From the sequence record MH051917: a stretch of 64,000 nucleotides of DNA. One strand, given 5' to 3'. This DNA comes from Enterobacteria phage vB_EcoM_IME341. Every line of letters starts with the position of its first letter. Within the stretch, counting starts at the first letter, position 1. Shown one piece after another: positions 4,874 to 60,996 of this stretch. A program made the position numbers and the translations under genes. The notes below the pieces were generated by a model. It saw only the letters and a program-made list of their open reading frames with translations, did no database searches and was not told the DNA's origin.

Positions 4874-4958
4874 TAATCTATTATCCCAGCCAGTTATTGA
4901 ATGGAACAGACCTAGGACCATTATACACTGTCTGGGACTTAAGCAATATAGGAACCCT

Positions 4959-5549
4959 ATGAACGGTTTATTTAACCAAACTAACACCACCAACTTTATC
5001 TTAGAGGTTAGTGACTCAGGAATGACCCAGTCATTCAAATTGAACGTACAAGATGTAACACTACCTGGTATCCATATTCCGATCTCAGACGTCCCAGGAT
5101 CGACCCAGGGTATACATCGTGCTAAGCTGCCAGGTTCTACAGTAGAATTCGACCCATTGGTCGTGAACTTTCTTGTAGACCGTGAATTGAAATCATGGCT
5201 TGATGTTTATAAGTGGATGTTGTCATTAAACAACTACGTAACCCACGAATCCGAAGCTTGGCATCCTAAAGGCTTACCTGAAGCAATTACGCTCCATATT
5301 CTTGATAATAACAAACAGAAAATCGTAATGAGCATTCATTACTACGGTGGTTGGCCATCCGACCTATCCGAAATCCAGTACTCATATAAAGAGGATTCCG
5401 ACCCTGCGATAATCGCTACAGCAACATTCAACTTCAAATCGTTTGCTGTAGAAATAGATGGTACAATAGTTACAGGTCGTCCACAAATTGATTCGTATGC
5501 CGAACAACGTGTGGCTCGTATGTCTATGCATCCATCTATGAGAAAATAA
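4959..5549 (+). CDS. 3: gp3 tail completion / sheath stabilizer protein
   Basis: 196 aa ORF between gene 2 and gene 1 as in T4. Confidence 0.7.
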   Translation: MNGLFNQTNTTNFILEVSDSGMTQSFKLNVQDVTLPGIHIPISDVPGSTQGIHRAKLPGSTVEFDPLVVNFLVDRELKSWLDVYKWMLSLNNYVTHESEAWHPKGLPEAITLHILDNNKQKIVMSIHYYGGWPSDLSEIQYSYKEDSDPAIIATATFNFKSFAVEIDGTIVTGRPQIDSYAEQRVARMSMHPSMRK

Positions 5550-6302
5550 TGAAACTAATATCAATTGTAGGAATCAAACGTAGCGGTAAGGATACCGTTG
5601 CTAACTATGTAATCGAAAATATGGATTCGGTAAAATTTCAGCTCGCGGGTCCTATTAAAAAGTATCTGGCTGAAGCCTATGAATACATCTCTGATGACCC
5701 TGTATTCGACCGTAGTTATATGCCTAAACTCGATTTTAACTGTTTTGAAGGTATCGGTTACGACCGCGAAGAAATCCTTCCTTTAAAACCATATGATGTG
5801 ATTGATATCTTTGAAAATGCTATTGTCAAACTGAATAATATCCTTCCTATTCCGGGAATTGATGTTCTTACCGCATATCATTATGGTCTTACCCCAGTCC
5901 AGTATCTGTCTGAAGAAACAAAAGACCAACTGTTTGAAGTAATAAATAAAAATAACAATTGGTCAGTACGTCGTCTCATGCAGACCCTTGGGACCGATAT
6001 TATTGTTAACCAATTTGATAAGATGTATTGGGTTAAGTTGTTCGCTTTAGACTATTTTGATAAAATATACTCTGATGCGAAATACTATGTCGTACCTGAT
6101 GTTCGTCAAACACACGAAATTGATTCGCTCAGAGCGATGGGTGCTACGATTATTCATGTAGTTCGCGCTGAAACCGGTCAAGTACAAGACTCGCACATCA
6201 CTGAAGCGGGTCTACCAATTTTACCTGGTGACGTTGTTGTTGAAAATAACGGCACTCTTTCTGAACTATACACTACTATTGATAAATTATTAGGAAATAA
6301 AA

Positions 6303-7205: not shown

Positions 7206-7234
7206 TGTTTACAAGGTCTATAGGCATGATACTA
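7206..7234 (+). promoter_or_regulatory. early promoter cassette (GTTTAC -35, 17-bp spacer, TACTAT -10)
   Basis: gtttacaaggtctataggcatgatactatagacctatcaa; spacer contains inverted repeat aggtctatag/ctatagacct. Confidence 0.6.
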
Positions 7235-7272
7235 TAGACCTATCAAAACAAACTAACCAAACGGAAATCAAA

Positions 7273-7774: not shown

Positions 7775-7804
7775 GTTTACAACGGGCTCTAGTGATGGTA
7801 CTAT
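7775..7804 (+). promoter_or_regulatory. early promoter cassette
   Basis: gtttacaacgggctctagtgatggtactatagccctatcaa. Confidence 0.55.
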
Positions 7805-7840
7805 AGCCCTATCAAAACAAATGAGTGATTGGAGAATAAA

Positions 7841-9387: not shown

Positions 9388-10047
9388 ATGCTTTGCCAAT
9401 ATTGTTCTAAAGAATGTAAAAACTTAAATTCACTAAAGCAACATGAAAAACGGTGCAAATCTAACCCAAATGGATTAGATATGAGCGGCCCTAATAACCC
9501 TCGTTTCGGTCTTAAAGGTGTCAATCAATTTACAAAAGCCAAAGAACTAGGTAAAGAAATAAAGGTTTCTGATAAAACCAGAGAAAAACTTAGAAAAGCC
9601 AATACAGGATATGTATGGTCTAATGAACGCAAAGAAGCACATTCTAAAAGAATGCGGCAAGCTGTTCTTGATAATCCTGATTCATATTCTGCTTCTAATG
9701 TTTCTGGTCGAGTAAAAACATATGAGTTTGACGGATTTAAATTTAAAGGGACTTGGGAATTAAAAGTTGCTAAGTTTTTAAAAGAACACAATATCAAATA
9801 TACTAATGAAATAAAGCCAATTCCTTACGAATGGGAAGGTTCAGAACATCTCTATTTTCCTGATTTTTATTTACCCACTTATGATTTTTATATAGAAGTC
9901 AAAGGATATAAAAGAGATAGAGACCTTTGTAAATGGAAAGCTTTAGAAAATTTGATAGTTTTAGAAAAAGATGAGATTTCCGATTTGTCTTGTCTTTTAA
10001 ATAAATTACGTCCCGCTGGTGTAATGGATAGCATACGATCCTTCTAA
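9388..10047 (+). CDS. putative freestanding homing-endonuclease-like protein
   Basis: N-terminal Cys cluster CQYCSKEC...HEKRC, NUMOD-like basic repeats, C-terminal PD-(D/E)xK-like FPDF...YIEVKG; inserted between tRNAs like seg genes in T4; ORF-track start 9376 lies inside a hairpin. Confidence 0.5.
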   Translation: MLCQYCSKECKNLNSLKQHEKRCKSNPNGLDMSGPNNPRFGLKGVNQFTKAKELGKEIKVSDKTREKLRKANTGYVWSNERKEAHSKRMRQAVLDNPDSYSASNVSGRVKTYEFDGFKFKGTWELKVAKFLKEHNIKYTNEIKPIPYEWEGSEHLYFPDFYLPTYDFYIEVKGYKRDRDLCKWKALENLIVLEKDEISDLSCLLNKLRPAGVMDSIRSF

Positions 10048-10084
10048 GTTTGCGGTCCTGGTTCGATCCCAGGGCGGGATACCA
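10010..10084 (+). tRNA. tRNA-Arg (anticodon UCU)
   Basis: Acceptor GTCCCGC/GCGGGAT, T-arm CCTGG-TTCGATC-CCAGG, anticodon loop with TCT, 3' CCA; first ~38 nt overlap the endonuclease ORF 3' end. Confidence 0.75.
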
Positions 10085-10342
10085 AATGAAGACTATTATA
10101 TAGTCAAGCCGTCGTATGAAGACTGATTGCCAGCATTCACCGGCGCAACAAACAAGAAACCGGGTCGCTACCGGTAAGTCGTCGGACTGAAGTTCTCTGG
10201 AGTATAGTTCCTCCCACAGTTGTACTGTGTTCTGGTTCTTTACTATCACAGCTGAAACGGCGCACCGAACACTTGCCTAGCAGGTGGAACCCCGACAAGG
10301 TTGCCGCAAGGCATAGCCCCTTCCGAAAGGTTGGGGCTTTTT
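10085..10342 (+). ncRNA. candidate structured small RNA(s) downstream of tRNAs
   Basis: About 260 nt without ORF, GC-richer than surroundings, ends in strong terminator; T4 encodes stable RNAs C/D of unknown function in its tRNA cluster. Confidence 0.3.
10315..10342 (+). terminator. intrinsic terminator
   Basis: agcccc-ttccgaaaggtt-ggggct followed by TTTTT. Confidence 0.65.
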
Positions 10343-11014: not shown

Positions 11015-11043
11015 GTTTACACCTCCTTTAAACATGATACTAT
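11015..11043 (+). promoter_or_regulatory. early promoter cassette
   Basis: gtttacacctcctttaaacatgatactatagacctatcaaaacaa. Confidence 0.6.
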
Positions 11044-11078
11044 AGACCTATCAAAACAACAGAGTGAAGGAGAGTAAA

Positions 11079-12467: not shown

Positions 12468-12478
12468 TGTTACCGGGA

Positions 12479-12500
12479 GACTTCGGTCTCCCTATTTGGA
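12479..12500 (+). terminator. stem-loop / weak terminator
   Basis: gggagac-ttcg-gtctccc followed by TATTT. Confidence 0.35.
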
Positions 12501-12515
12501 GGAGAGGAGAATATT

Positions 12516-13058: not shown

Positions 13059-13398
13059 TCTTTCATCACATGTTTATCAATTGGCTGAATATGATATTGC
13101 TATTTCCTTATTTATGGGAATTGTCACCGGTATGCTAGGAGGTTTGGTTGGTCTGGTAATGACCACGGTTATGGCGGCAATCGAAGGAGTCACGCCTATT
13201 GAGATGGGTTTTTATATGATAATCGCTCCGGCTGTCGTGGCTTATTTTATCCCTGTTGTGTATGATATTTGCCATACAAACGCTTTGAATGCTCCCATCC
13301 GTAAGAGATATGCTTTAGAGATGGCTAATTATAATGAGCATGTAAAACAAACTAAACGTAATGACCTTGAAATCTTTATTAAGGAATGTAAATCATGA
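13045..13398 (+). CDS. small membrane protein
   Basis: 117 aa from ATG 13045 (ORF-track start 12871 is inside preceding gene); two hydrophobic helices; C-terminus FIKECKS. Confidence 0.5.
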   Translation: MERPSLSSHVYQLAEYDIAISLFMGIVTGMLGGLVGLVMTTVMAAIEGVTPIEMGFYMIIAPAVVAYFIPVVYDICHTNALNAPIRKRYALEMANYNEHVKQTKRNDLEIFIKECKS

Positions 13399-16480: not shown

Positions 16481-16492
16481 TTGCATAAAATT

Positions 16493-16521
16493 GTTTACAA
16501 GGTCTATAGGCATGATACTAT
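16493..16521 (+). promoter_or_regulatory. early promoter cassette
   Basis: gtttacaaggtctataggcatgatactatagacctatcaaaacaa, identical to the 7206 copy. Confidence 0.6.
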
Positions 16522-16558
16522 AGACCTATCAAAACAACAGAGTGAAATGGAGAATAAA

Positions 16559-22047: not shown

Positions 22048-22076
22048 GTTTACATCTCCTGTAGACATGATACTAT
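22048..22076 (+). promoter_or_regulatory. early promoter cassette with RBS-sequestering inverted repeat
   Basis: gtttacatctcctgtagacatgatactataaacctatcaactacaggag; arms ctcctgtag / ctacaggag (SD in 3' arm). Confidence 0.6.
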
Positions 22077-22104
22077 AAACCTATCAACTACAGGAGATTA
22101 CAAA

Positions 22105-22563
22105 ATGTCAGAAATTAATTCAGAAGTATTCATCCGCCGCAACAAATTACGTCGTCAGTTCGAAACCGAATTCCGTGAACTGAATGCGTCCATCAAAAAA
22201 GCCGCCATTAAGAGCGGTGTCCCAGCCTTCTTTATTAAGTACTCTAATCACTTGTTGGACCGTGCTATCCAACGTGAAATCGACGAAAAATACGTTTTTG
22301 CTTTATTCAAGCAACTCCATAACCATGTTAAAGAAATCCACGAATTCTTAATCCAGGAACCTCTGCCTGATGTAGAATCCGAAATTGTCCCTGGTAAAGT
22401 GTATCGTCCATTGCGTCTCGAAATTACCGATAAAACCTTATGGCTAGGTATGACAGTAGACCGTAAACATCCTGATAAAGGATATTCCCTTAAATGTCGT
22501 ATGGCATTTGTTAACTCTAAACGTTTAGAAGGTAAAACCAGCACTAAAGTAATCTATCTTTAA
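22105..22563 (+). CDS. hypothetical protein
   Basis: 152 aa after cassette. Confidence 0.5.
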   Translation: MSEINSEVFIRRNKLRRQFETEFRELNASIKKAAIKSGVPAFFIKYSNHLLDRAIQREIDEKYVFALFKQLHNHVKEIHEFLIQEPLPDVESEIVPGKVYRPLRLEITDKTLWLGMTVDRKHPDKGYSLKCRMAFVNSKRLEGKTSTKVIYL

Positions 22564-25926: not shown

Positions 25927-25930
25927 TCAA

Positions 25931-25966: not shown

Positions 25967-25995
25967 GTTTACATCCTCTAGGAACATGATACTAT
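25967..25995 (+). promoter_or_regulatory. early promoter cassette
   Basis: gtttacatcctctaggaacatgatactatagacctatcaactaatgagg. Confidence 0.6.
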
Positions 25996-26023
25996 AGACC
26001 TATCAACTAATGAGGAAAACAGT

Positions 26024-29226: not shown

Positions 29227-29255
29227 GTTTACAACCTCGTAGAGCATGATACTAT
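29227..29255 (+). promoter_or_regulatory. early promoter cassette
   Basis: gtttacaacctcgtagagcatgatactatagacctatcaaataa. Confidence 0.6.
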
Positions 29256-29303
29256 AGACCTATCAAATAAATGAACTGAAACAACTTAAAACGGAGATAC
29301 AAA

Positions 29304-29560: not shown

Positions 29561-29589
29561 GTGTACATATGCTTTAAACGTGTTATTAT
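29561..29589 (+). promoter_or_regulatory. degenerate early promoter cassette (GTGTAC / TATTAT)
   Basis: gtgtacatatgctttaaacgtgttattatagacctatcaa. Confidence 0.4.
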
Positions 29590-29626
29590 AGACCTATCAA
29601 ATCTACTGAGTGAAATGGAGAATATA

Positions 29627-30607
29627 ATGTTAACTATCAAAATCAACAAAGGTATCTATCGCGGTAATGAAATCTCTGGTACGTTCATGAGTTCAGGTAA
29701 AACCTGGTTCCCTAATAAAATTCATGAATCCGAAGCTCACCTCGGTGATGGCAAGGTATTCGTACAGATTGATGGTGTTGAACGTGGTGTATGGGTGTTC
29801 AAATGTGACGTTGAAATGGAAGGTGCTGAAGCTCCTGTAGTGGTTACTGAATCCGCTGAAGAAATGAAACATCGCATCAACAAACGTTTTAAAGTAATGA
29901 ACATGATGACTAACGGAATCATCGATGGTAAAATTCGTTCCCTTATCATCTCTGGTGCCGCAGGTATTGGTAAAACGTATTCTTTGGATAAAGCATTACA
30001 GAATGCCCATGAAAATGAAACTATCGAATATAAATCAATCAACGGAAAGATTAGTGGAATCGGTCTTTACGAGCAGCTTTGGAATAACCGCGGCCCTAAT
30101 AGTGTTCTTCTTATCGATGATGTTGATGTATTCTCTGATATGGATATCCTGAACCTGTTAAAAGCAGCATTGGATACCGGTGAAAAACGTAAGGTGTGCT
30201 GGAGCACTTCAAGTTCTTACCTCGATGATAAAAATATCGATAAAGAATTCGAATACGAAGGCACCATCGTGTTCATCACCAACGTTGATATTGACCGTGA
30301 ATTAGAACGTGGAACTAAACTTGCTCCACACCTCCAGGCTTTAGTATCTCGTTCAGTTTACTTAGACCTCGGAGTTCACTCTAACGAAGAGATTATGGTT
30401 CGTGTTGAAGACGTTATCCTGTCCACTGATATGATGCAAAACCGAGGTCTGTCTGATGCTGAGACCTATCAAGCTTTAGCATGGATGAAGGCTAATGTAT
30501 CTCGTCTTCGTAACGTATCATTACGTACAGCTCTTTATCTAGCGGACTTCATTGCCACCGATAAAAATGACTGGAACGAAATCGCTGAAGTTACCCTTCT
30601 GAAATAA
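29627..30607 (+). CDS. P-loop AAA-type ATPase of unknown function
   Basis: Walker A SGAAGIGKT, Walker B VLLIDDVD; 327 aa from ATG after cassette SD. Confidence 0.55.
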   Translation: MLTIKINKGIYRGNEISGTFMSSGKTWFPNKIHESEAHLGDGKVFVQIDGVERGVWVFKCDVEMEGAEAPVVVTESAEEMKHRINKRFKVMNMMTNGIIDGKIRSLIISGAAGIGKTYSLDKALQNAHENETIEYKSINGKISGIGLYEQLWNNRGPNSVLLIDDVDVFSDMDILNLLKAALDTGEKRKVCWSTSSSYLDDKNIDKEFEYEGTIVFITNVDIDRELERGTKLAPHLQALVSRSVYLDLGVHSNEEIMVRVEDVILSTDMMQNRGLSDAETYQALAWMKANVSRLRNVSLRTALYLADFIATDKNDWNEIAEVTLLK

Positions 30608-30961: not shown

Positions 30962-30990
30962 GTTTACATCTCCAGTAGAAATGATACTAT
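30962..30990 (+). promoter_or_regulatory. early promoter cassette with RBS-sequestering inverted repeat
   Basis: gtttacatctccagtagaaatgatactatagacctatcaactactggag; arms ctccagtag / ctactggag. Confidence 0.6.
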
Positions 30991-31016
30991 AGACCTATCA
31001 ACTACTGGAGGTTATC

Positions 31017-33524: not shown

Positions 33525-33554
33525 GTTTACATCCAAGGACGGATGGAGTATAAT
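33525..33554 (+). promoter_or_regulatory. early promoter (GTTTAC / TATAAT)
   Basis: gtttacatccaaggacggatggagtataat. Confidence 0.55.
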
Positions 33555-36070: not shown

Positions 36071-36100
36071 GTTTACAACGATTCCGAAATAGAGTATAAT
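36071..36100 (+). promoter_or_regulatory. early promoter (GTTTAC / TATAAT)
   Basis: gtttacaacgattccgaaatagagtataat. Confidence 0.5.
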
Positions 36101-45574: not shown

Positions 45575-45988
45575 ATGTTTGCTAACGCTATTACTGTTAA
45601 AGATATCCAAGTTAAAACCATTCGTACTGACTCTAACCCACACAATCAAAACCGTATTCGTAAATCATGGGTACTGAATATTGATACCAACTCTGCACGT
45701 CGTCTGCAGTCTCTTCCACAAGAAACTAAGTTCATGCTCTATGGTATCATTGATAACGACGTATCCGATAAGTGGGTAGAAATTATGCGTCGTCATTATA
45801 ATGATTCTCTGGCCGCAGGTGCTAAACTGGTTATCGACCGTGATGGTTCTGAACGTCTCGAAGATGATTATTGCGTAGATTTTGACGAACAACTGCTTGA
45901 AGCCGGTGCTATTGTTGCTTCCCAGATTCCAGAGTATATTGAATCTCTGCCTGAATCCATTCGTAAACAAATGATCGTTATTGCTTAA
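45575..45988 (+). CDS. putative RNA polymerase-binding protein RpbA (position-based)
   Basis: 137 aa between 45.2 and gene 45 as T4 rpbA. Confidence 0.45.
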   Translation: MFANAITVKDIQVKTIRTDSNPHNQNRIRKSWVLNIDTNSARRLQSLPQETKFMLYGIIDNDVSDKWVEIMRRHYNDSLAAGAKLVIDRDGSERLEDDYCVDFDEQLLEAGAIVASQIPEYIESLPESIRKQMIVIA

Positions 45989-46016
45989 TTAATTTTTGAC
46001 TTGATAAGGAAACATT

Positions 46017-46715
46017 ATGAAATTCTCTAAAGAAACTCTGAACATTCTGAAAAACTTCTCCGGTATTAACCCAGGTATCATGCTTAAACCTGGTAACACT
46101 ATTCTAACTCGTTCAGTAACGGGTGCCAGTTATGGTGAAGCTACTGTAAATGACACCTTTGATATCGAAGCCGCAATTTATGATTTGAATGGCTTCTTAA
46201 GTATTCTGTCATTGGTATCCGATAGTGCTGAAGTTTCGGTAAGTGAAGACCAAACCACCTTAATTATTAAAGACCAACGTTCAACTATTAAGTGGCCTAT
46301 TGCCGACCCAAGTACAATTGCATTCCCAAGCAAAGCTATTCCGTTCCCGGTGGCTGAAGTTATTTTTGACCTTAAAGCCGAAGATTACCAACAGTTGATG
46401 CGTGTGTCCTCTGGACTGAGTATTGATACATTTGCTATCACTGTAGACAATGGTAAAATTGTAATCAACGGTTACAAACAAGTTGATGATAAGGACCTGG
46501 CACGTCCATTGTATTCCTTAGTGGTTGCGGACCATGATGGCCCTGAATTCAAATTCATTATTAACAAAACTAATATGAAAATGATGCCGGCTGATTACCA
46601 TGTATTGCTATGGGCTCGTGGTGAAGGTCAAGACGCTCGTTTCGCAGCCAAGTTTGAAGGTTCACAAGCTTCTTACGTATTAGCTATGGAAGCAGGCTCA
46701 AGCCACTCGTTCTAA
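46017..46715 (+). CDS. 45: gp45 sliding clamp
   Basis: 232 aa; NPGIMLKPGNTILTRSV, DPSTIAFPSKAIPFPVAEV; resembles T4 gp45. Confidence 0.9.
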   Translation: MKFSKETLNILKNFSGINPGIMLKPGNTILTRSVTGASYGEATVNDTFDIEAAIYDLNGFLSILSLVSDSAEVSVSEDQTTLIIKDQRSTIKWPIADPSTIAFPSKAIPFPVAEVIFDLKAEDYQQLMRVSSGLSIDTFAITVDNGKIVINGYKQVDDKDLARPLYSLVVADHDGPEFKFIINKTNMKMMPADYHVLLWARGEGQDARFAAKFEGSQASYVLAMEAGSSHSF

Positions 46716-46740
46716 AGCATGGGGAGGAGATTCCTCCCTT
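46712..46740 (+). promoter_or_regulatory. stem-loop followed by TTGGAGTATAATG upstream of gene 44
   Basis: gggagga-gat-tcctccc then ttggagtataatg. Confidence 0.35.
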
Positions 46741-46776
46741 GGAGTATAATGTAAAAACAAACCTGAGGAAATTAAT

Positions 46777-47736
46777 ATGCTTACAGTAAATAATAATGAA
46801 TTCATGTGGGAACAGAAATATCGTCCGGGTACTTTATCTGAATGTATTCTGCCTGCACATGATAAAGAAACTCTCCAAGCCATTGTTAATAAGGGCCTAA
46901 TCCCTAACATTATCCTAGTCTCTGCTTCACCAGGCACAGGCAAAACTACCGTAGCTAAAGCATTGTGTGCTGATACAAATTCAGATATGCTGTTTGTTAA
47001 CGGTTCTGACTGTCGTATTGATTTCGTTCGTAATGAACTTACTCGTTTTGCATCTTCCAAATCTATCGAAGGTAAGCGTAAGGTAATTGTTATCGACGAA
47101 TTCGACCGTGCTGGTGTTGCTGAAGCTCAACGTCACCTTCGTTCGTTCTTAGAAGCCTATTCCTCAAACTGTTCTGTAATTATTACAGCAAACAATATTG
47201 ATGGTATTATTGGCCCACTTCAATCCCGTTGTCGCGTTATTAAATTTGGTGAAGCCACTCCGGCTGACCAAACATCCATGATGAAAGAAATGATTCATCG
47301 TGCTGTAGCAATCTGTAAAAACGAAAATATCGAAGTCGAAGACCTTAAAGTTATTGCTGCTTTAGTTAAGCAAAACTTTCCTGACTTCCGAAAAACAGTT
47401 AACCAACTAGACCGTTACTCATCCAGTGGTAAAATCGATACAGGCATTTTGAGTATTGTAATGAATACCAATTCGCCTATAGATGAAGTAGTGGCTGCAC
47501 TGAAAGATAAAAACTTTAAAGAACTCCGTGCATTAGCTCCACGCCACGTCAATGACTATTCCAACTTTATTATGACACTGGCTAACGAACTCTATGGTAA
47601 ATTGCCTGGGCCAAGCATTGTTAGAATGTACGAAATTGTCGGTGAAAATAACCAATACCACGGTATTGCGGCTAACCCAGAAATTCACATGACTTATCTG
47701 TTCATCCAACTTGCTCTGGAGCTCCAATGGCTATAA
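46777..47736 (+). CDS. 44: gp44 clamp loader large subunit
   Basis: AAA+ Walker A SPGTGKTT, Walker B VIVIDEFD. Confidence 0.9.
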   Translation: MLTVNNNEFMWEQKYRPGTLSECILPAHDKETLQAIVNKGLIPNIILVSASPGTGKTTVAKALCADTNSDMLFVNGSDCRIDFVRNELTRFASSKSIEGKRKVIVIDEFDRAGVAEAQRHLRSFLEAYSSNCSVIITANNIDGIIGPLQSRCRVIKFGEATPADQTSMMKEMIHRAVAICKNENIEVEDLKVIAALVKQNFPDFRKTVNQLDRYSSSGKIDTGILSIVMNTNSPIDEVVAALKDKNFKELRALAPRHVNDYSNFIMTLANELYGKLPGPSIVRMYEIVGENNQYHGIAANPEIHMTYLFIQLALELQWL

Positions 47737-48299
47737 GTCTTTTTGATGATGACGTTGAACTGAACGAACATGAAGTTGCTTGGAAACAACGTAACGATGC
47801 TGCTATTCAAGCCTTGGCCGATTCATTTAAAGAAAAGGCTGAAAACGAACTGTTCGCTATTATGAACGATATCACATATGGTAAGAACCAACGTAACCTA
47901 GCTCAATCGGAAAACTATAATCAATTTTGGCTCGATAATAGTTTGAGCCAACATGTGGATTGCATTATGCAAGCTGCAATGGTTAACTGTTTGAAACTTG
48001 ATGACCAAAGTCATTTTAACTATCTTTTACACGCCGTTCCTAAGGGTAAGAGATTTGGTAAATGGGCTAAGGCCCATGATGATGAAGTTAGTGTAGTTTT
48101 TATTACTCGTTTATTGATGAAATACCATTCAATTAATAATGATGACGCTTATCGTTATCTCGAGACTTATAAAATTAAAGGCCATCTTCCGGCAGTGCTT
48201 AAGAAGATGAAAGGGTTGGTTACGGACGAATTCCTGAAATCCGTAACTAAAAATGTTAAAGAACAAAAAGACTTGAAAAAGAAAGCATTGGAATGGTAA
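47727..48299 (+). CDS. 62: gp62 clamp loader small subunit
   Basis: 190 aa immediately after gp44. Confidence 0.8.
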   Translation: MAISLFDDDVELNEHEVAWKQRNDAAIQALADSFKEKAENELFAIMNDITYGKNQRNLAQSENYNQFWLDNSLSQHVDCIMQAAMVNCLKLDDQSHFNYLLHAVPKGKRFGKWAKAHDDEVSVVFITRLLMKYHSINNDDAYRYLETYKIKGHLPAVLKKMKGLVTDEFLKSVTKNVKEQKDLKKKALEW

Positions 48300-48305
48300 A
48301 TTAAA

Positions 48306-48668
48306 ATGATTGAAATTACTCTGAAACAACCTGAAGACTTCTTGAAAGTGAAAGAGACCCTAACTCGTATGGGTATTGCTAATAATAAAGAAAAGAAACT
48401 ATATCAATCCTGCCACATTCTGCAAAAGCAAGGGCTATATTATATCGTCCACTTTAAAGAGATGTTGCGTATGGATGGCCGCCAAGTTGATATTGATGGT
48501 GAAGACTACCAACGTCGGGATTCTATTGCCCAGCTTCTTAAGGAGTGGGGACTGATTGATATTGTAGATGAATCTGAACTGTTTGAAATCACCAATAACT
48601 TCCGTGTCATTTCCTTTAAGCAGAAAAATGACTGGGAACTATTGTCCAAATACACAATCGGTAATTAA
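48306..48668 (+). CDS. regA: RegA translational repressor
   Basis: MIEITLKQPEDFLKVKETLTRMGIANNKEK...; highly similar to T4 RegA. Confidence 0.9.
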   Translation: MIEITLKQPEDFLKVKETLTRMGIANNKEKKLYQSCHILQKQGLYYIVHFKEMLRMDGRQVDIDGEDYQRRDSIAQLLKEWGLIDIVDESELFEITNNFRVISFKQKNDWELLSKYTIGN

Positions 48669-48669
48669 T

Positions 48670-48885
48670 ATGATTCATGAAATTGAAACGTGTGAACGAC
48701 TTAAAGAGGTGTACGGGCTTTCCACAACTCAAACTGTTTTTGACCTTTCCGAAGAGCTCCAAATAGAATTTCAAAAGGACCTCCAAAAGTTACTACATCC
48801 TGGCCAGCAAGTCTTCCAGGCTATGATTAAAACTAAAGACGAAGATGGTAATTCAACTATTAAACGTCAGACAATAGAAATTTAA
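48670..48885 (+). CDS. hypothetical protein
   Basis: 71 aa between regA and gene 43. Confidence 0.45.
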   Translation: MIHEIETCERLKEVYGLSTTQTVFDLSEELQIEFQKDLQKLLHPGQQVFQAMIKTKDEDGNSTIKRQTIEI

Positions 48886-48888
48886 GCA

Positions 48889-48908
48889 AAGGGACTTCGG
48901 TCCCTTTT
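48889..48908 (+). terminator. stem-loop / terminator followed by TTGGAGTATAATG
   Basis: aagggac-ttcg-gtccctt + TTTT. Confidence 0.45.
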
Positions 48909-48966
48909 GGAGTATAATGATTCATCAACAAACAAAAGACAATCACTCGTCTATAAAGGAAATGAA

Positions 48967-51678
48967 ATGCAAGAATTCTATTTGACAGTCGAACAAATCG
49001 GTGATAATATTCTCGAACGTTACATCGATAAAAATGGTAACGAACGTAGTCGTGAAGTTCCTTACAAGCCCACAATGTTTATGCATGCCAATCCAGAGCA
49101 AGCCGTAAAATACATTGATATCTATGGTAAGGGTTGTGTTAAGAAAGAATTCGACTCTATGCGCGATGCATCCCAATGGATGAAACGTATGGACGATATG
49201 GGTCTCGAAGCCCTGGGTATGGACGACTATAAATTAGCCTATTTGTCTGATACCTATCGTAAAGAAATCAGGTATGATTCTTCTAAGATTCGTATTGCTA
49301 ACTTCGACATCGAGGTAACATCTCCTGATGGATTCCCTGAACCAGCTCAGGCTAAACATCCTATCGATGCCATTACCCACTACGACTCGATTGACGATAA
49401 ATTCTATGTATTCGACCTTTTAGTTTCGCCTTATGGTACCGTCGAAGAGTGGTCGATTAAAATCGCTGAGAAACTCCAAGAAGAAGGTGGTGACGAAGTT
49501 CCACAAGAAATCATTGACAAAATCGTTTATCTTCCGTTTAATTCCGAAGAAGAAATGATGCTTGAGTATCTGAATTTCTGGCAACAGAAAACTCCTGTGA
49601 TTTTGACTGGATGGAACGTTGAGTCGTTTGACGTACCATACGTTTATAACCGTCTGAAAAATCTGTTTGGTGAGAACACTGCTAAGCGATTAAGCCCGCA
49701 TCGTAAGACTCGTGTTAAAGTTATCGAGAACATGTACGGTGCTCGTGAAATTATTACATTGTTCGGTATCTCTGTTCTAGATTATATCGACCTGTATAAA
49801 AAATTCAGCTTTACCAACCAGCCTTCTTATTCTCTGGATTATGTTTCTGAATATGAATTGAAAGTAGGTAAGTTGAAATATGATGGTCCAATCTCCAAGT
49901 TACGTGAGACTAACCACCAACGATATATTTCCTATAACATTATCGACGTATATCGTGTAGTGCAGATTGATATGAAACGCCAGTTCATTCTTTTGAGTTT
50001 GGACATGGGTTATTATGCTAAGATGCAGATTCAGTCGGTGTTCAGTCCAATTAAGACTTGGGATGCTATTATCTTTAATAGCCTTAAAGAACAAGGCAAG
50101 GTCATTCCGCAGGGTCGTTCACACGTGGTCCAACCTTATCCTGGTGCTTTCGTTAAGGAACCTATTCCTAACGCTTACAAATATGTAATGAGTTTCGACC
50201 TTACATCTCTGTACCCGAGTATCATTCGACAAGTGAATATAAGCCCAGAGACCATCGCAGGGACATTCGCTAACGCACCTATACATGAATATATTGCCGG
50301 AACAGCTCCGCGTCCTAGCGACACCTACAGTTGCTCTCCTAACGGCATGATGTACTATAAAGACCGTGAAGGTGTGATTCCGACAGAAATCACTAAGGTG
50401 TTCTTACAACGTAAAGAACATAAAGGTTATATGCTTGCAGCCCAACGTAATGGTGAGTTAATTAAAGAAGCATTAGAAAATCCTAATCTCTCGGTTGATA
50501 GTCCACTGGATATCGATTATCGTTTTGACTTCTCTGACGAAATCAAAGCCCAGATTAAAGCACTGTCAGCGCCTTCTTTAAGAGAAATGTTGAAGAAAGC
50601 CGAGCTCACTGAAGTTGCAGGTAATACGGCTCAGATTAACCGTAAGTTGCTTATCAACTCCCTTTATGGTGCACTTGGTAACGTATGGTTCCGTTACTAC
50701 GACCTCAGGAACGCAACTGCAATCACACTGTTTGGTCAAATGGCCCTCCAATGGATTGAACGTAAGGTTAACGAATATCTGAATAGCGTGTGTAAGACTG
50801 AAAACCAGAAGTTCGTGCTCTATGGTGATACTGACTCCATTTATGTTAAGGCAGATGCAATCATCAATAAAGTAGGTGAAGATAAATTCCGTGACACTAA
50901 CCACTGGGTCGACTTCTTAGATAAATTTGCACGTGAACGTATGGAACCGGCTATTGATGCAGGCTTCCGTGAGATGTGCGAGTACATGAACAACAAACAA
51001 CACTTGATGTTCATGGACCGAGAAGCTATCGCAGGTCCTCCACTTGGTTCTAAAGGTCTTGGTGGATTCTGGACAGGCAAGAAACGTTATGCACTGAACG
51101 TTTGGGACATGGAAGGTACTCGTTATGCCGAACCACACTTGAAAATCATGGGCCTTGAAACTCAGAAATCAAGTACGCCTAAAGCGGTTCAGAAAGCTCT
51201 GAAAGAATGTATCCGTCGTATGCTTCAGGAAGGCGAGGCCTCTTTGCAAGAATATTTCAAACAGTTTAATAAGGAATTTAACGAACTAAACTATGTAAGC
51301 ATTGCAGCAGTATCCAGTGCTAACAACATTGAGAAATATAACGAAGGCGGATTCCCTGGTTCTAAATGCCCGTACCATATCAAAGGTTGCTTAGCTTACA
51401 TGCGTGCTTCTGCAGGTGATTTGACTATGCCTCGTATCGTTGATGGTGAAAAGGTATATGTACTGCCACTTAAAGAAGGCAACCCGTTTGGTGAAGCCTG
51501 TATGGCATGGCCGTCAGGTATTGAACTTCCAGTTCAGATTCGTGACCAAGTCCTCCGTTGGATGGACTACAACGTACTGTTCCAAAAGACCTTTATCAAG
51601 CCTCTGACTGGTTTTACTGAGTCCGCTAAAATCGACTACGAGAAAAAAGCAACATTATTTGATATGTTCGACTTTTAA
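48967..51678 (+). CDS. 43: gp43 DNA polymerase (family B)
   Basis: 903 aa; MQEFYLTVEQIGDNILERYID..., exo and pol motifs (FDIE, YGDTDS); ORF-track start 48907 is upstream. Confidence 0.95.
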   Translation: MQEFYLTVEQIGDNILERYIDKNGNERSREVPYKPTMFMHANPEQAVKYIDIYGKGCVKKEFDSMRDASQWMKRMDDMGLEALGMDDYKLAYLSDTYRKEIRYDSSKIRIANFDIEVTSPDGFPEPAQAKHPIDAITHYDSIDDKFYVFDLLVSPYGTVEEWSIKIAEKLQEEGGDEVPQEIIDKIVYLPFNSEEEMMLEYLNFWQQKTPVILTGWNVESFDVPYVYNRLKNLFGENTAKRLSPHRKTRVKVIENMYGAREIITLFGISVLDYIDLYKKFSFTNQPSYSLDYVSEYELKVGKLKYDGPISKLRETNHQRYISYNIIDVYRVVQIDMKRQFILLSLDMGYYAKMQIQSVFSPIKTWDAIIFNSLKEQGKVIPQGRSHVVQPYPGAFVKEPIPNAYKYVMSFDLTSLYPSIIRQVNISPETIAGTFANAPIHEYIAGTAPRPSDTYSCSPNGMMYYKDREGVIPTEITKVFLQRKEHKGYMLAAQRNGELIKEALENPNLSVDSPLDIDYRFDFSDEIKAQIKALSAPSLREMLKKAELTEVAGNTAQINRKLLINSLYGALGNVWFRYYDLRNATAITLFGQMALQWIERKVNEYLNSVCKTENQKFVLYGDTDSIYVKADAIINKVGEDKFRDTNHWVDFLDKFARERMEPAIDAGFREMCEYMNNKQHLMFMDREAIAGPPLGSKGLGGFWTGKKRYALNVWDMEGTRYAEPHLKIMGLETQKSSTPKAVQKALKECIRRMLQEGEASLQEYFKQFNKEFNELNYVSIAAVSSANNIEKYNEGGFPGSKCPYHIKGCLAYMRASAGDLTMPRIVDGEKVYVLPLKEGNPFGEACMAWPSGIELPVQIRDQVLRWMDYNVLFQKTFIKPLTGFTESAKIDYEKKATLFDMFDF

Positions 51679-59990: not shown

Positions 59991-60019
59991 GTTTACATCT
60001 CCTGTAGGCGTGATACTAT
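59991..60019 (+). promoter_or_regulatory. early promoter cassette
   Basis: gtttacatctcctgtaggcgtgatactatagacctatcaacttggag. Confidence 0.6.
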
Positions 60020-60043
60020 AGACCTATCAACTTGGAGAACAAA

Positions 60044-60938: not shown

Positions 60939-60968
60939 GTTTACAACGGTCTATGGTAGTGATACTAT
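60939..60968 (+). promoter_or_regulatory. early promoter cassette
   Basis: gtttacaacggtctatggtagtgatactatagacctatcaactaacgagg. Confidence 0.6.
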
Positions 60969-60996
60969 AGACCTATCAACTAACGAGGAGTTAAAA

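Follow-up and report, generated by a model that had tools for sequence, protein, structure and literature searches.

Genes and repeated elements in the clamp-loader region

The window analyzed here is a stretch of 64,000 nt from Enterobacteria phage vB_EcoM_IME341 (record MH051917). Sequence comparison identifies it as Dhakavirus DNA, i.e., that of a JS98-like T-even phage, with 97% identity to C6, WG01 and IME08; across the clamp-loader region, IME08 and the window are 96.6% identical. The annotations of IME08 include MotA, AsiA, RegA and RegB. The genes relevant to this analysis are the following:

46017-46715, + strand: gene 45 (sliding clamp), stop codon TAA at 46713-46715; from the ORF list and the annotation in 97%-identical relatives
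46777-47736, + strand: gene 44; from the ORF list and the relatives' annotation
47727-48299, + strand: gene 62; from the ORF list and the relatives' annotation
48306-48668, + strand: regA; from the ORF list, with a match to Pfam PF01818
48670-48885, + strand: ORF 43.1 (71 aa); Pfam PF25760, 'Phage RB18 ORF43.1', E = 1e-31
48967-51678, + strand: gene 43 (DNA polymerase); from N-terminal homology to T4 and relatives
22105-22563: regB; Pfam PF10715, E = 5e-69

The same N-terminal homology places the true start of gene 43 at ATG 48967 (MQEFYLTVEQ...). The ORF list gives this frame as 48907-51678, starting at a TTG that lies inside the repeat described below; homology rules that start out.

An exact-match search of the window found two copies of the 13-mer TTGGAGTATAATG, both on the + strand. 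As an earlier note on this DNA had described, one copy follows gene 45, the other follows ORF 43.1, and each abuts a GC-rich hairpin located just past the respective stop codon:

46721-46739, + strand: hairpin 1, GGGGAGGA-gat-TCCTCCCT, 6 nt past the gene 45 stop codon
46739-46751, + strand: 13-mer copy 1, with GGAG at 46741-46744 and a -10-like TATAAT at 46745-46750
48888-48907, + strand: hairpin 2, AAAGGGAC-uucg-GTCCCTTT, 3 nt past the ORF 43.1 stop codon
48907-48919, + strand: 13-mer copy 2, with GGAG at 48909-48912 and the -10 hexamer TATAAT at 48913-48918

Both copies begin at the final base of the intergenic hairpin, that is, in the same register. There is no third copy on either strand of the window, and the identity between the copies ends at the first flanking base on both sides. 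Allowing up to two mismatches, the motif is not enriched in the window (4 matches versus 2.7 expected). The window contains 606 exact 13-mer pairs, where order-1 Markov simulations give about 73, and this pair is by itself not significant, being within chance expectation. What raises it above chance is its position next to the hairpins together with its conservation in relatives. Such conservation is indeed seen: the complete IME08 genome (172,253 bp) carries only two copies of the 13-mer, both at the orthologous sites, and hairpins occupy these positions across T4-like lineages. The two units that bracket the clamp-loader genes are thus real, and largely ordinary.

Both hairpins resemble terminators that lack a full U-tract

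Hairpin 1 has a stem of seven Watson-Crick pairs and one G.U pair, closed by a loop of 3 nt, with a predicted centroid energy of -13 kcal/mol. A C(UUCG)G tetraloop caps hairpin 2, AAAGGGAC-UUCG-GUCCCUUU, which is followed by UUUU and has a predicted centroid energy of -10.7 kcal/mol. Folding z-scores over 61 nt are modest, at -1.5 for site 1 and -2.0 for site 2. Hairpin 2 is also favored by covariation: 93% of the alignment cells are paired, four pairs are changed on both sides, and its score was reached by none of 500 shuffles.

Both hairpins provide the GC-rich stem-loop of an intrinsic terminator, but neither is followed by a U-tract as defined here, i.e., at least five U in the 8 nt immediately 3' of the stem. 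Hairpin 1 is followed by two U residues (3/8 U in UUGGAGUA), while the sequence directly 3' of hairpin 2, UUUUGGAG, has 4/8. A simple terminator scan of the + strand flagged neither. U-tracts below this threshold are compatible only with partial termination or with a hairpin that stabilizes the 3' end. On these folds, hairpin 1 is probably a 3'-end stabilizer or weak attenuator for the gene 45 mRNA, and hairpin 2 is likely to be a partial intrinsic terminator or 3' stabilizer for transcripts of 45/44-62-regA-43.1. UUCG stem-loops are described as intergenic terminators of T4 in PMC1702504. The window contains further UUCG hairpins that are each followed by a promoter, which is of the early type in three cases (25929, 29185 and 59960) and a canonical MotA-box promoter in one (42167).

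The unit upstream of gene 43 matches the T4 middle promoter P43

The earlier note had named a terminator-promoter unit as one of three options for the modules, and had pointed to the T4 upstream regions for comparison. On the gene 43 side this comparison reveals orthology. The T4 regA-43 intergenic region is aagcaaGGGGCttcgGCCCCttaTTTGGAGTATAATatatC; its hairpin, GGGGCuucgGCCCC, is the ortholog of hairpin 2, and TTGGAGTATAAT is identical in T4 and here. The start of the T4 middle promoter P43 is 29933 (Hinton 2010, PMC2988021, Table 1), which maps to a C located 5 nt after TATAAT; other Table 1 promoters of the same T4 locus calibrate correctly. By homology to T4, then, a sigma-70 -10 element (TAnnnT) lies at the proper distance from a start. 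Upstream of gene 43, the hexamer is TATAAT in 14 of 16 aligned sequences from 8 lineages, with varying flanks, and TAAAAT in the Moon lineage.

The MotA-box-like sequence of this putative promoter is degenerate. A sigma-70 promoter scan reported neither site 1 nor site 2, and at site 2 there is no -35 element, the sequence there being AGGGAC. The MotA box was taken as (a/t)(a/t)(a/t)TGCTT(t/c)A, centered at -30 and 11-13 bp from the -10 element. The loop region of hairpin 2, GACTTCG, is found in this position, 13 nt upstream of the -10, and matches the core TGCTT(T/C)A at 4/7 positions (CTTC); its T4 equivalent, GGCTTCG, is 15 nt away, outside the 11-13 nt range. In the CC31, Moon and CGG4-1 lineages, TGCTAT lies 11-13 nt upstream of the -10, between the hairpin and that element, as would be expected of a MotA box. 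Canonical TGCTTTA-N11-12-TATAAT promoters occur in the window at 13330, 31562, 37321, 42167 and 45539.

RNA-seq of a T4 motA-amber mutant showed the region with genes 43, 45 and 44/62 to be highly MotA-dependent (PMC6024815), and motA and asiA are annotated in IME08. The identification of site 2 as an ortholog of the MotA-dependent middle promoter P43 is well supported at the sequence level, and the hairpin plus 13-mer before gene 43 corresponds to the known T4 hairpin and P43; promoter activity in IME341, and its dependence on MotA, are inferred by analogy. From the T4 homology and the usual 7-nt spacing, the following feature is predicted, as a homology-based position rather than a mapped end:

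48923-48925, + strand: predicted transcription start of the gene 43 middle transcript

The combination of hairpin 2, a -10 element and a separate operator hairpin recurs in at least nine T4-like lineages. The order hairpin, U-run, -10, operator hairpin, Shine-Dalgarno and ATG is kept in Dhaka-, Tequatro-, Mosig-, Kanagawa-, Gapriver-, Karam-, Moon- and Gelderland-type phages, and Acinetobacter T4-likes retain a hairpin and a -10-like element upstream of gene 43.

The unit upstream of gene 44 is a doubtful promoter

For gene 44, support for the promoter half of this option is weak. Site 1 has no MotA box (the -30 region, AGGAGAT, has no TGCTT) and no -35 element (the sequence there is GGGGAG), and so lacks the pairing of -10 with MotA box that marks a middle promoter; a P44 is missing among the approximately 60 T4 middle promoters (T4 list, PMC2988021). 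TATAAT is found here in Dhakavirus only. The sister genera have TATTAA, TACAAA or TATTGA, and RB69-, CC31- and Moon-type phages lack the hexamer altogether. In the Dhakavirus vB_EcoM_005, the entire site 1 unit is lost and a homing-endonuclease-like ORF takes its place; as this phage is viable, the unit is dispensable there. A promoter at site 1 is thus doubtful and, judging from the sequence, would at most be a weak one with a -10 element alone.

The hairpin itself fares better. A hairpin occurs at the 45-44 position in 16 of 16 relatives examined, formed by at least ten different stems of -8 to -18 kcal/mol, and within Dhakavirus the loop of hairpin 1 varies (gat/aat/att/atc) while the stem is kept. 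TGGAGTA is common to Dhaka-, Kanagawa- and Gaprivervirus. As judged by sequence conservation, the conserved parts upstream of gene 44 are therefore the hairpin and the adjoining TGGAGTA (UGGAGUA in RNA).

Could the 13-mer at the 45-44 junction have no function of its own? In this case, TGGAGTAT would reflect shared ancestry, two point changes would have recreated TATAATG, and only the hairpin would matter. The frequency of exact 13-mer pairs, with about 73 expected per window, and the abrupt ends of the repeat are in line with this idea, as are the 2-3 hexamer substitutions that separate the sister genera from Dhakavirus, the dispensability of the unit in vB_EcoM_005, the absence of an upstream promoter element and the missing P44. 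Against it, TGGAGTA is unchanged across five lineages despite the divergence of every hairpin stem, T4-type phages have independently kept a TATAAT directly next to the 45-44 hairpin, in one variant with an altered flank, and the two 13-mers begin in equal register relative to their hairpins. We regard this explanation as possible, but as the less likely one.

The translational operators are separate from the hairpins

The earlier note had also offered a RegA or gp43 operator context for the hairpins, which the positions of these operators speak against:

46764-46779, + strand: gene 44 translation initiation region, TGAGGAAATTAATATG, homologous to the T4 RegA operator region AAUGAGGAAAUUAUG
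48937-48952, + strand: gp43 translational operator hairpin, AGAC-AAUCACUC-GUCU (predicted fold)

The RegA operator sequence of T4 gene 44 and the gp43 operator of T4 and RB69 are described in PMC3014915. A gp43 operator was expected to have an AAUAAC/AAUCAC-type loop, to lie about 20-40 nt before the AUG and contiguous with the Shine-Dalgarno sequence, and to be inside the gene 43 transcript. The hairpin at 48937-48952, a separate element 30 nt downstream of hairpin 2, has these properties, and its loop AAU(A/C/U)ACUCG beside the Shine-Dalgarno is conserved in all lineages. Hairpin 2, with its UUCG loop and its position upstream of the predicted start, does not have them. The RegA-type site is at the gene 44 ribosome-binding site.

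A part in an operator, or in the initiation region of a mini-ORF (GGAG-N4-AUG), is hence disfavored for the hairpin plus 13-mer, and we judge it highly improbable. It is the case that both copies lie upstream of genes that are translationally repressed in T4 (44 by RegA, 43 by gp43), that GGAGUAUAAUG looks like an early-gene SD-AUG region, for instance GGAGAAUAUAAUG at 29617, and that copy 1 reads AUG-UAA. Yet the gp43 operator is inside the P43-type transcript whereas hairpin 2 and GGAG would be upstream of its start, and RegA binds unstructured, A/U-rich sites at the AUG. Moreover, the G of the would-be AUG is unconserved (TATAATA in T4, phiE142, PEi20 and VR25; TATAATT in JS98), and the SD-AUG spacing would be just 4 nt.

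GGAG as a candidate RegB processing site

It is also plausible, in line with the third option of the earlier note, that the conserved element is an RNA signal, namely a RegB/S1 site (GG^AG with an A/U-rich run lacking C after it) located immediately 3' of a protective hairpin. Read-through RNA would then be cut at 46742/46743 and 48910/48911, which would leave the upstream mRNA hairpin-ended and release 44-62-regA and gene 43 messages with short leaders. This possibility, which is compatible with a promoter at the same place, we hold only tentatively.

regB is encoded in the window, and both GGAG motifs are unpaired in the centroid structures, just outside the stems. According to PMC1702504, the RegB/S1 consensus is GGAGRAYARAA, with C excluded; of the 91 GGAG motifs on the + strand, just 15 match RAYARAA at 4/7 positions or more without any C, and both sites are among them. 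At site 1, three genera have retained TGGAGTA but not the hexamer. At site 2, 7 of the 9 enterobacterial lineages have GGA(G/U) at -16 to -13, and other MotA-type promoters have no GGAG there; the consensus match upstream of gene 43 is 7/7 in Moon (GGAUGAUAAAA) and 5/7 in T4 (GGAGUAUAAUA). Furthermore, the review by Uzan & Miller states that RegB-mediated processing stimulates gp43 synthesis.

Other observations weigh against cleavage. Here UAUAAUG, although free of C, matches the consensus at 4/7 positions, with U at position 5 and U and G at positions 10 and 11. Upstream of gene 43, GGA is missing from VR25/VR26 (which have GUAG) and from CGG4-1, and the 45-44 spacer lacks GGAG in T4 and in RB69-, CC31- and Moon-type phages. 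Most GGAG motifs in T4 middle transcripts are RegB-resistant; the cleaved T4 sites number 24 (PMC1702504, Fig. 3A). Finally, transcripts begun at the P43 ortholog would exclude the GGAG.

An improbable role as recombination cassettes

Composite promoter/stem-loop motifs, or PeSLs, border gene 43 in RB49 and phi1 (PMC2839356), and PmSLs with a Mot box are also known (PMC4122927). If the present units were cassettes of this kind, their sequence similarity would promote modular gene shuffling. Like PeSLs, both have a stable stem-loop adjacent to variable ORFs, and indels are concentrated at both junctions: just upstream of hairpin 2, ORF 43.1 or unrelated small ORFs come and go, and ORF 43.1 is present or absent even within one genus; homing-endonuclease-like ORFs are inserted at the 45-44 junction in two cases and between the -10 and gene 43 in another. 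The promoter of a PeSL, however (-35 TTTACW/TTGACA, 17-bp spacer, -10 and AT-rich upstream sequence), was not found, both sites lacking the -35 and the AT-rich UP element. In addition, the shared stretch is only 13 bp, hairpins 1 and 2 are unrelated in sequence, and the flanked genes 44, 62 and regA are core genes whose order is fixed in all relatives. The window also has a separate, far more repetitive PeSL-like family of 11 copies, which does not include these two units. We thus find a role as recombination cassettes improbable.

Proposed explanation

Taken together, these data make it probable, in our assessment, that the two units are mRNA punctuation around the 44-62-regA-43.1 transcription unit. 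This explanation builds on direct observations, i.e., the sequences, folds, covariation and T4 orthology, the published P43 start, and the fact that the genus has motA, asiA and regB. A stable GC-rich hairpin 3-6 nt past the upstream stop codon would attenuate or terminate transcription and protect the 3' end of the upstream message. GGAG and TATAAT follow directly, and before gene 43 this TATAAT would be the -10 element of the MotA/AsiA-dependent P43 ortholog. The DNA of hairpin 2 would fill the -35/-30 region, its CUUCGG loop giving the degenerate MotA-box-like core GACTTCG. RNA polymerase would start about 5-7 nt downstream of TATAAT, around 48923-48925, and the resulting gene 43 leader of about 44 nt would carry the gp43 operator hairpin and the Shine-Dalgarno sequence. 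Before gene 44, the 13-mer would at most be a weak -10-only promoter, with the hairpin and UGGAGUA as the functional parts.

The identity of the two 13-mers probably derives from the U-run tail (TT) and a preferred -10 context, RGRG-TATAAT-G, as in the early promoters of this phage; it does not point to a mobile repeat. The early promoters with a 17-bp spacer in the window read (A/G)G(A/G)G-TATAAT.

A more speculative proposal, which we consider unlikely, is that the 13-mer is an overlapping boundary signal of triple use: the hairpin would end RNA, TATAAT as DNA would start RNA, and RegB/S1 would cut read-through RNA at GGAG plus UAUAAU. If this were true, the mRNA boundary would be identical whichever route made the transcript, and a separate 44-62-regA(-43.1) message would be cut out by way of the two copies. 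The -10 hexamer would double as the A/U-rich half of the RegB site, an overlap that would explain both the retention of GGA(G/U) beside the gene 43 promoter in most lineages and the stimulation of gp43 synthesis by RegB in T4.

Comparison with known systems

PeSL and PmSL elements (Arbiol 2010; Comeau 2014) likewise consist of a compact, terminator-like stem-loop fused to a promoter element in an intergenic region, at junctions of ORF gain and loss. Here, in contrast, the stem-loop occupies the place of the -35 or MotA box, and there are two copies that share 13 bp and flank core genes; the true PeSL-like family of the window is a different, 40-nt repeat. With RegB/S1 sites (GGAGRAYARAA), the units share an unpaired intergenic GGAG, the seven C-free, A/U-rich nucleotides after it, and the presence of regB. 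Unlike those sites, they match at 4/7 positions rather than near-perfectly, are not a Shine-Dalgarno sequence, and precede middle genes; T4 transcripts of this class mostly resist RegB.

At the 45-44 junction, T4 shares the hairpin position: a stable hairpin lies a few nucleotides past the gene 45 stop codon, before the ribosome-binding site of the RegA-controlled gene 44, and TATAAT abuts it in T4 too. T4 has a CUUCGG hairpin, whereas here a GGGAGGA/TCCTCCC stem has a 3-nt loop, resembling the hairpin of the RB69-type phiE142, and TTGGAG lies between stem and TATAAT; in T4 this spacer has neither a GGAG nor a listed promoter.

Upstream of gene 43, the two phages differ in one compensatory stem pair, G-C in T4 and A-U here, by which the T4 GGCTTCG becomes GACTTCG. 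The spacing from hairpin to -10 is 2 nt shorter here, regA and the hairpin are separated by an inserted ORF 43.1, and the operator stem and loop read AAUCACUC here versus UAAUAACUC in T4. In both, a C(UUCG)G hairpin follows 'AGCAA' directly upstream of gene 43, TTGGAGTATAAT is identical, the downstream operator hairpin has a AAUNACUCG loop, the Shine-Dalgarno sequence is AAGGAA, and MotA and AsiA are encoded, in our case within the genus.

The repeated 13-mer and its two hairpins

The region shares 97% identity with Escherichia phages C6, WG01 and IME08 and 94% with JS98 and JS10; thus, the window belongs to a Dhakavirus, i.e., a JS98-like T-even phage. Dhakaviruses are widely used therapeutic coliphages. 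The genes are ordered 45, 44, 62, regA, 43.1, 43. The earlier note had described a hairpin followed by an identical 13-mer at two sites, and this description was borne out: exact copies of TTGGAGTATAATG occupy two positions, both on the + strand, with no further copy in the window, and each abuts a stable hairpin.

Copies of the 13-mer and adjoining hairpins
46721-46739, + strand: hairpin 1, GGGGAGGA-gat-TCCTCCCT, beginning 6 nt past the gene 45 stop codon
46739-46751, + strand: copy 1 of the 13-mer, whose first base is the final base of hairpin 1
48888-48907, + strand: hairpin 2, AAAGGGAC-uucg-GTCCCTTT, beginning 3 nt past the stop codon of a 71-aa ORF
48907-48919, + strand: copy 2 of the 13-mer, whose first base is the final base of hairpin 2

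The 71-aa ORF ahead of hairpin 2 matches the Pfam family 'RB18 ORF43.1'. The centroid energies of hairpins 1 and 2, -13 and -10.7 kcal/mol, indicate stable folds, with modest folding z-scores in 61-nt windows (-1.5 and -2.0, respectively). Repetition by itself was dropped as a sign of significance, since order-1 Markov simulations predict about 73 exact 13-mer pairs per window (606 were observed). The repeat does not extend by a single base on either flank, and versions with up to two mismatches are not enriched in the window. The pair is nevertheless non-random, since both copies are aligned identically to the 3' edge of a hairpin between genes, are conserved, and are the sole copies in the 172-kb IME08 genome, at the same two sites.

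The early promoters of the window that have a 17-bp spacer read (A/G)G(A/G)G-TATAAT-(G/C), as in GGATGGAGTATAATC at 33543 and AGAGTATAATG at 36092 and 39470; T4 P45.2 reads TTAGAGTATAAT. In this context, the 13-mer resembles the two final T of a U-run after the hairpin, joined to the -10 context that this phage prefers. Because TGGAGTAT is found at both junctions in three genera, the likeness of the two copies is old. Recent gene conversion between the sites is thus ruled out, TGGAGTAT being older than the split of the three genera and the two copies in JS98 disagreeing at the 13th base. A start-stop reading of the module as a mini-ORF (GGAG-N4-AUG-UAA) was likewise discarded, as relatives do not keep the AUG and it lies too close to the GGAG.

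An Rfam scan of 45900-49300 at permissive thresholds returned no match, and a simple promoter/terminator scan flagged neither module on the + strand; by consensus rules, therefore, the modules are sub-canonical. Only two U residues follow the stem of hairpin 1 and four that of hairpin 2, so both fail the simple terminator rule. The most suitable description for both is partial terminator or 3'-end stabiliser.

Copy 2 and the T4 gene 43 promoter

The regA-43 spacer of T4 reads aagcaaGGGGCttcgGCCCCttaTTTGGAGTATAATatatCaagagcctaataactcgggctataaactaaggaatatctATG. It shares with the window an 'AGCAA' lead-in, a C(UUCG)G hairpin, an identical TTGGAGTATAAT, and a further hairpin downstream:

48937-48952, + strand: second hairpin, AGAC-AAUCACUC-GUCU, abutting the Shine-Dalgarno sequence

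In T4 and RB69, the autoregulatory operator of gp43 is a hairpin with a UAAC-type loop, located upstream of the ribosome-binding site (PMC3014915), and the hairpin at 48937-48952 corresponds to it. This separate, downstream operator rules out the proposal that the hairpins beside the 13-mers are themselves RegA or gp43 translational operators.

The start of T4 P43, the MotA-dependent middle promoter of gene 43, is placed at 29933 in Hinton's compilation of mapped middle promoters (PMC2988021), which credits Guild 1988 and Hsu & Karam 1990. On AF158101 this position is a C, 5 nt past TATAAT and 40 nt ahead of the ATG; P42, P45, P45.2 and P46i(2), also mapped at this locus, confirmed that the coordinates align. 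In RNA-seq of a T4 motA amber mutant, the block with genes 43, 45 and 44/62 proved highly MotA-dependent (PMC6024815). A literature search for genome-wide T4 TSS or Term-seq data yielded nothing usable.

At copy 2, both a -10 element and orthology to T4 P43 are present, and the genus has MotA and AsiA, which IME08 encodes together with RegA and RegB. The MotA-box position is occupied by GACTTCG, an equivocal candidate for the box, contributed by the CUUCGG loop 13 nt from the -10; the T4 loop gives GGCTTCG, 15 nt away. Judging from sequence comparison, we conclude that copy 2 would be the -10 element of the conserved gene 43 middle promoter, set against a terminator-type hairpin. The gene 43 transcript would be expected to start at about 48923-48925, and we infer that in this phage the promoter is active and depends on MotA.

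Conservation upstream of gene 43

The comparison set consisted of 31 T-even-type loci retrieved from IMG/VR by means of gp44. These were Dhakavirus (JS98, QL01, IME281, vB_EcoM_005), Kanagawavirus (PEi20, CIP9), Gaprivervirus (VR25, VR26), T4-like, phiE142 (RB69 group), CC31/PG7-like, Citrobacter Moon, Salmonella CGG4-1 and Acinetobacter Acj61/AbTZA1 loci. Every enterobacterial lineage keeps the order stop codon, hairpin, U-run, -10, 10-25 nt, operator hairpin, Shine-Dalgarno, ATG. The hexamer is TATAAT in 14 of the 16 aligned sequences and TAAAAT in the Moon lineage, with variable flanks. The stem of hairpin 2 covaries (GGGAC/GUCCC, GGGGC/GCCCC, GGGCC/GGCCC, GGAGCC/GGCUCC, GGCC/GGCC): 93% of cells are paired and both sides have changed in four pairs, a score that none of 500 shuffles reached and that all slid registers fall far below. 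The hairpin and -10 unit was matched by T4 upstream of gene 43, the comparison that the earlier note had proposed, and is conserved across enterobacterial lineages.

A distance of 21-25 nt separates the hairpin from the -10 in the CC31, Moon and CGG4-1 lineages; the DNA between them holds TGCTAT, with the position and core of a MotA box, 11-13 nt upstream of the -10. In T4, RB69-type phages and the Dhaka-, Kanagawa- and Gapriverviruses, that position is taken by the hairpin itself.

Two kinds of insertion were also observed. In L013, a Salmonella T4-like phage locus, an HNH-type endonuclease ORF of 234 aa (4937-5641) sits between the promoter -10 and gene 43; the hairpin-TGCTAT-TATAAT unit is kept and the gp43 operator hairpin is removed. 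The slot between regA and hairpin 2 (48670-48885 in the window) is an indel hot spot in which ORF 43.1 (PF25760) or unrelated small ORFs come and go within a genus, always between the regA stop codon and 'AGCAA + hairpin'. Among the compared loci, ORF 43.1 is present in L002, L003, L008 and L022, absent from L004, L012, L028 and T4, and other ORFs fill the slot in L007, L009, L010 and L025.

The start of gene 43

In the IME08 record (HM071924, 27720..30491), gene 43 is annotated with 923 aa and a TTG start within the 13-mer, as some GenBank records place it. The equivalent ORF in the window is 48907..51678. Homology with T4 and all relatives puts the start at ATG 48967 (MQEFYL...), and the 20 extra codons (48907-48966) span the -10 element, leader and operator hairpin; the TTG start is probably a mis-annotation. 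The result corrects the regulatory annotation of Dhakavirus genomes, giving gene 43 a putative conserved promoter and an operator of its own and a start at ATG 48967. Otherwise, the result holds little new biology.

Copy 1 at the 45-44 junction

Each of the 16 distinct spacers examined has a hairpin 3' of the gene 45 stop codon; at least 10 different stems occur, with energies of -8 to -18 kcal/mol. Within Dhakavirus the stem is kept while the loop varies (gat, aat, att, atc). This combination indicates that hairpin 1 is under selection. The sequence that follows differs among lineages.

Post-hairpin sequence at the 45-44 junction
Dhakavirus: TTGGAGTATAATG
CIP9: TTGGAGTATTAAG
PEi20: ATGGAGTATTAAG
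VR25: ATGGAGTACAAAG
VR26: ATGGAGTATTGAG
T4: (gcc)TTTATAATttac

RB69-, CC31-, Moon- and Acinetobacter-type spacers have neither GGAG nor TATAAT after the hairpin. The proposed terminator-promoter unit is well supported at gene 43, as the ortholog of the T4 hairpin and P43, and weakly supported at gene 44: copy 1 has no -35 and no MotA box (its -30 region is AGGAGAT). The promoter scan did not report the site, and a 'P44' at this position is missing among the ~60 mapped T4 middle promoters of Hinton's compilation. In the Dhakavirus vB_EcoM_005 (L006, 2519-3000), a homing-endonuclease-like ORF with a weak NUMOD3 match stands in place of hairpin 1, the 13-mer and the first gene 44 codons and continues into gene 44 in frame; the copy 1 unit is thus dispensable. 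A working promoter at copy 1 is, in our estimate, rather unlikely. At copy 1 the hairpin is conserved; the resemblance of what follows to the copy 2 -10 region is lineage-specific, and its function as a promoter is doubtful.

A homing-endonuclease-like ORF, also with a weak NUMOD3 match, lies downstream of the 45-44 hairpin in the Gaprivervirus-like locus L008 (2418-2996); its Shine-Dalgarno-ATG region is GGAGAATAAAATG.

GGAG and RegB

The GGAG beside these hairpins had also been proposed as a RegB site, and the window encodes the enzyme:

22105-22563, + strand: regB (Pfam PF10715, E = 5e-69)

RegB processing of read-through RNA is a live, unproven secondary reading, compatible with a promoter at gene 43. 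For RegB/S1, the consensus is an unpaired GGAGRAYARAA from which C is excluded (PMC1702504). In the predicted fold, the two GGAG motifs sit immediately beyond the hairpin stems, and in GGAGUAUAAUG four of the seven downstream positions fit, with no C, a match level reached by 15 of the 91 + strand GGAG motifs of the window, both sites included. Of 9 enterobacterial lineages, 7 retain GGA(G/U) at the gene 43 promoter, where T4 and CC31 carry GGAGUAUAAUA (5/7) and Moon GGAUGAUAAAA (7/7); VR25/26 (GUAG) and CGG4-1 are without it. Other MotA-type promoters have no GGAG at the equivalent position, and at the 45-44 junction the conserved part is GGAG rather than the hexamer. The review by Uzan & Miller states that gp43 synthesis is stimulated by RegB-mediated processing; against this reading, most GGAG motifs in T4 middle transcripts are RegB-resistant. 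The conservation of GGAG beside these hairpins is the sole surprising feature. If GGAG were a RegB site, termination, initiation and processing would be linked at a single boundary.

Elsewhere in the window, the early-gene initiation regions at 7831, 11069, 16549 and 29617 carry a near-perfect RegB consensus, GGAGAAUAAAA. A third UUCG hairpin, GGGAGACttcgGTCTCCC, followed by tatTTGGAGGAGAGGAGaatattATG, occupies 12475-12515 (+); it has the same hairpin-UUUGGAG junction as the modules, but its GGAG run is the Shine-Dalgarno sequence of the next gene.

Comparison with other hairpin-promoter units

A ~40-nt repeat in the window, GTTTACAAGGTCTATAGGCATGATACTATAGACCTATCAA, is made up of an early promoter and a 10-bp hairpin that encloses the -10 region of this promoter. 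Its 18-nt core has 11 copies (8 exact) versus 0 expected, far stronger than the 13-mer repeat, and several copies lie directly 3' of UUCG terminator hairpins. It looks like a Dhakavirus PeSL (promoter-early stem-loop) family.

Copies of the ~40-nt repeat
7206-7245, + strand
11033-11053, + strand
16492-16531, + strand
22069-22086, + strand
25985-26005, + strand
29244-29265, + strand
29582-29599, + strand
30981-31000, + strand
60011-60029, + strand
60960-60978, + strand
7797-7814, further copy

A T-arm-like hairpin at 10055-10075, within ~9800-10300 (+), lies at the position of a tRNA-Arg/Asn/Met cluster annotated in IME08 (69405-69634).

The two modules resemble the composite promoter-stem-loops PeSL and PmSL described in T4-like phages, but both lack the -35 and UP element and fall outside the window's real PeSL-like family of 11 copies. 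Other UUCG hairpins lead into full early or MotA-type promoters at 25929, 29185, 42167 and 59960, and the modules are thus compressed versions of the normal grammar of this genome. Copy 2 belongs to a well-studied kind, a terminator-type hairpin with the middle promoter P43. The comparison of lineages also shows that the T4 P43 layout, in which a hairpin takes the place of the activator box of a middle promoter, is both old and widely distributed.
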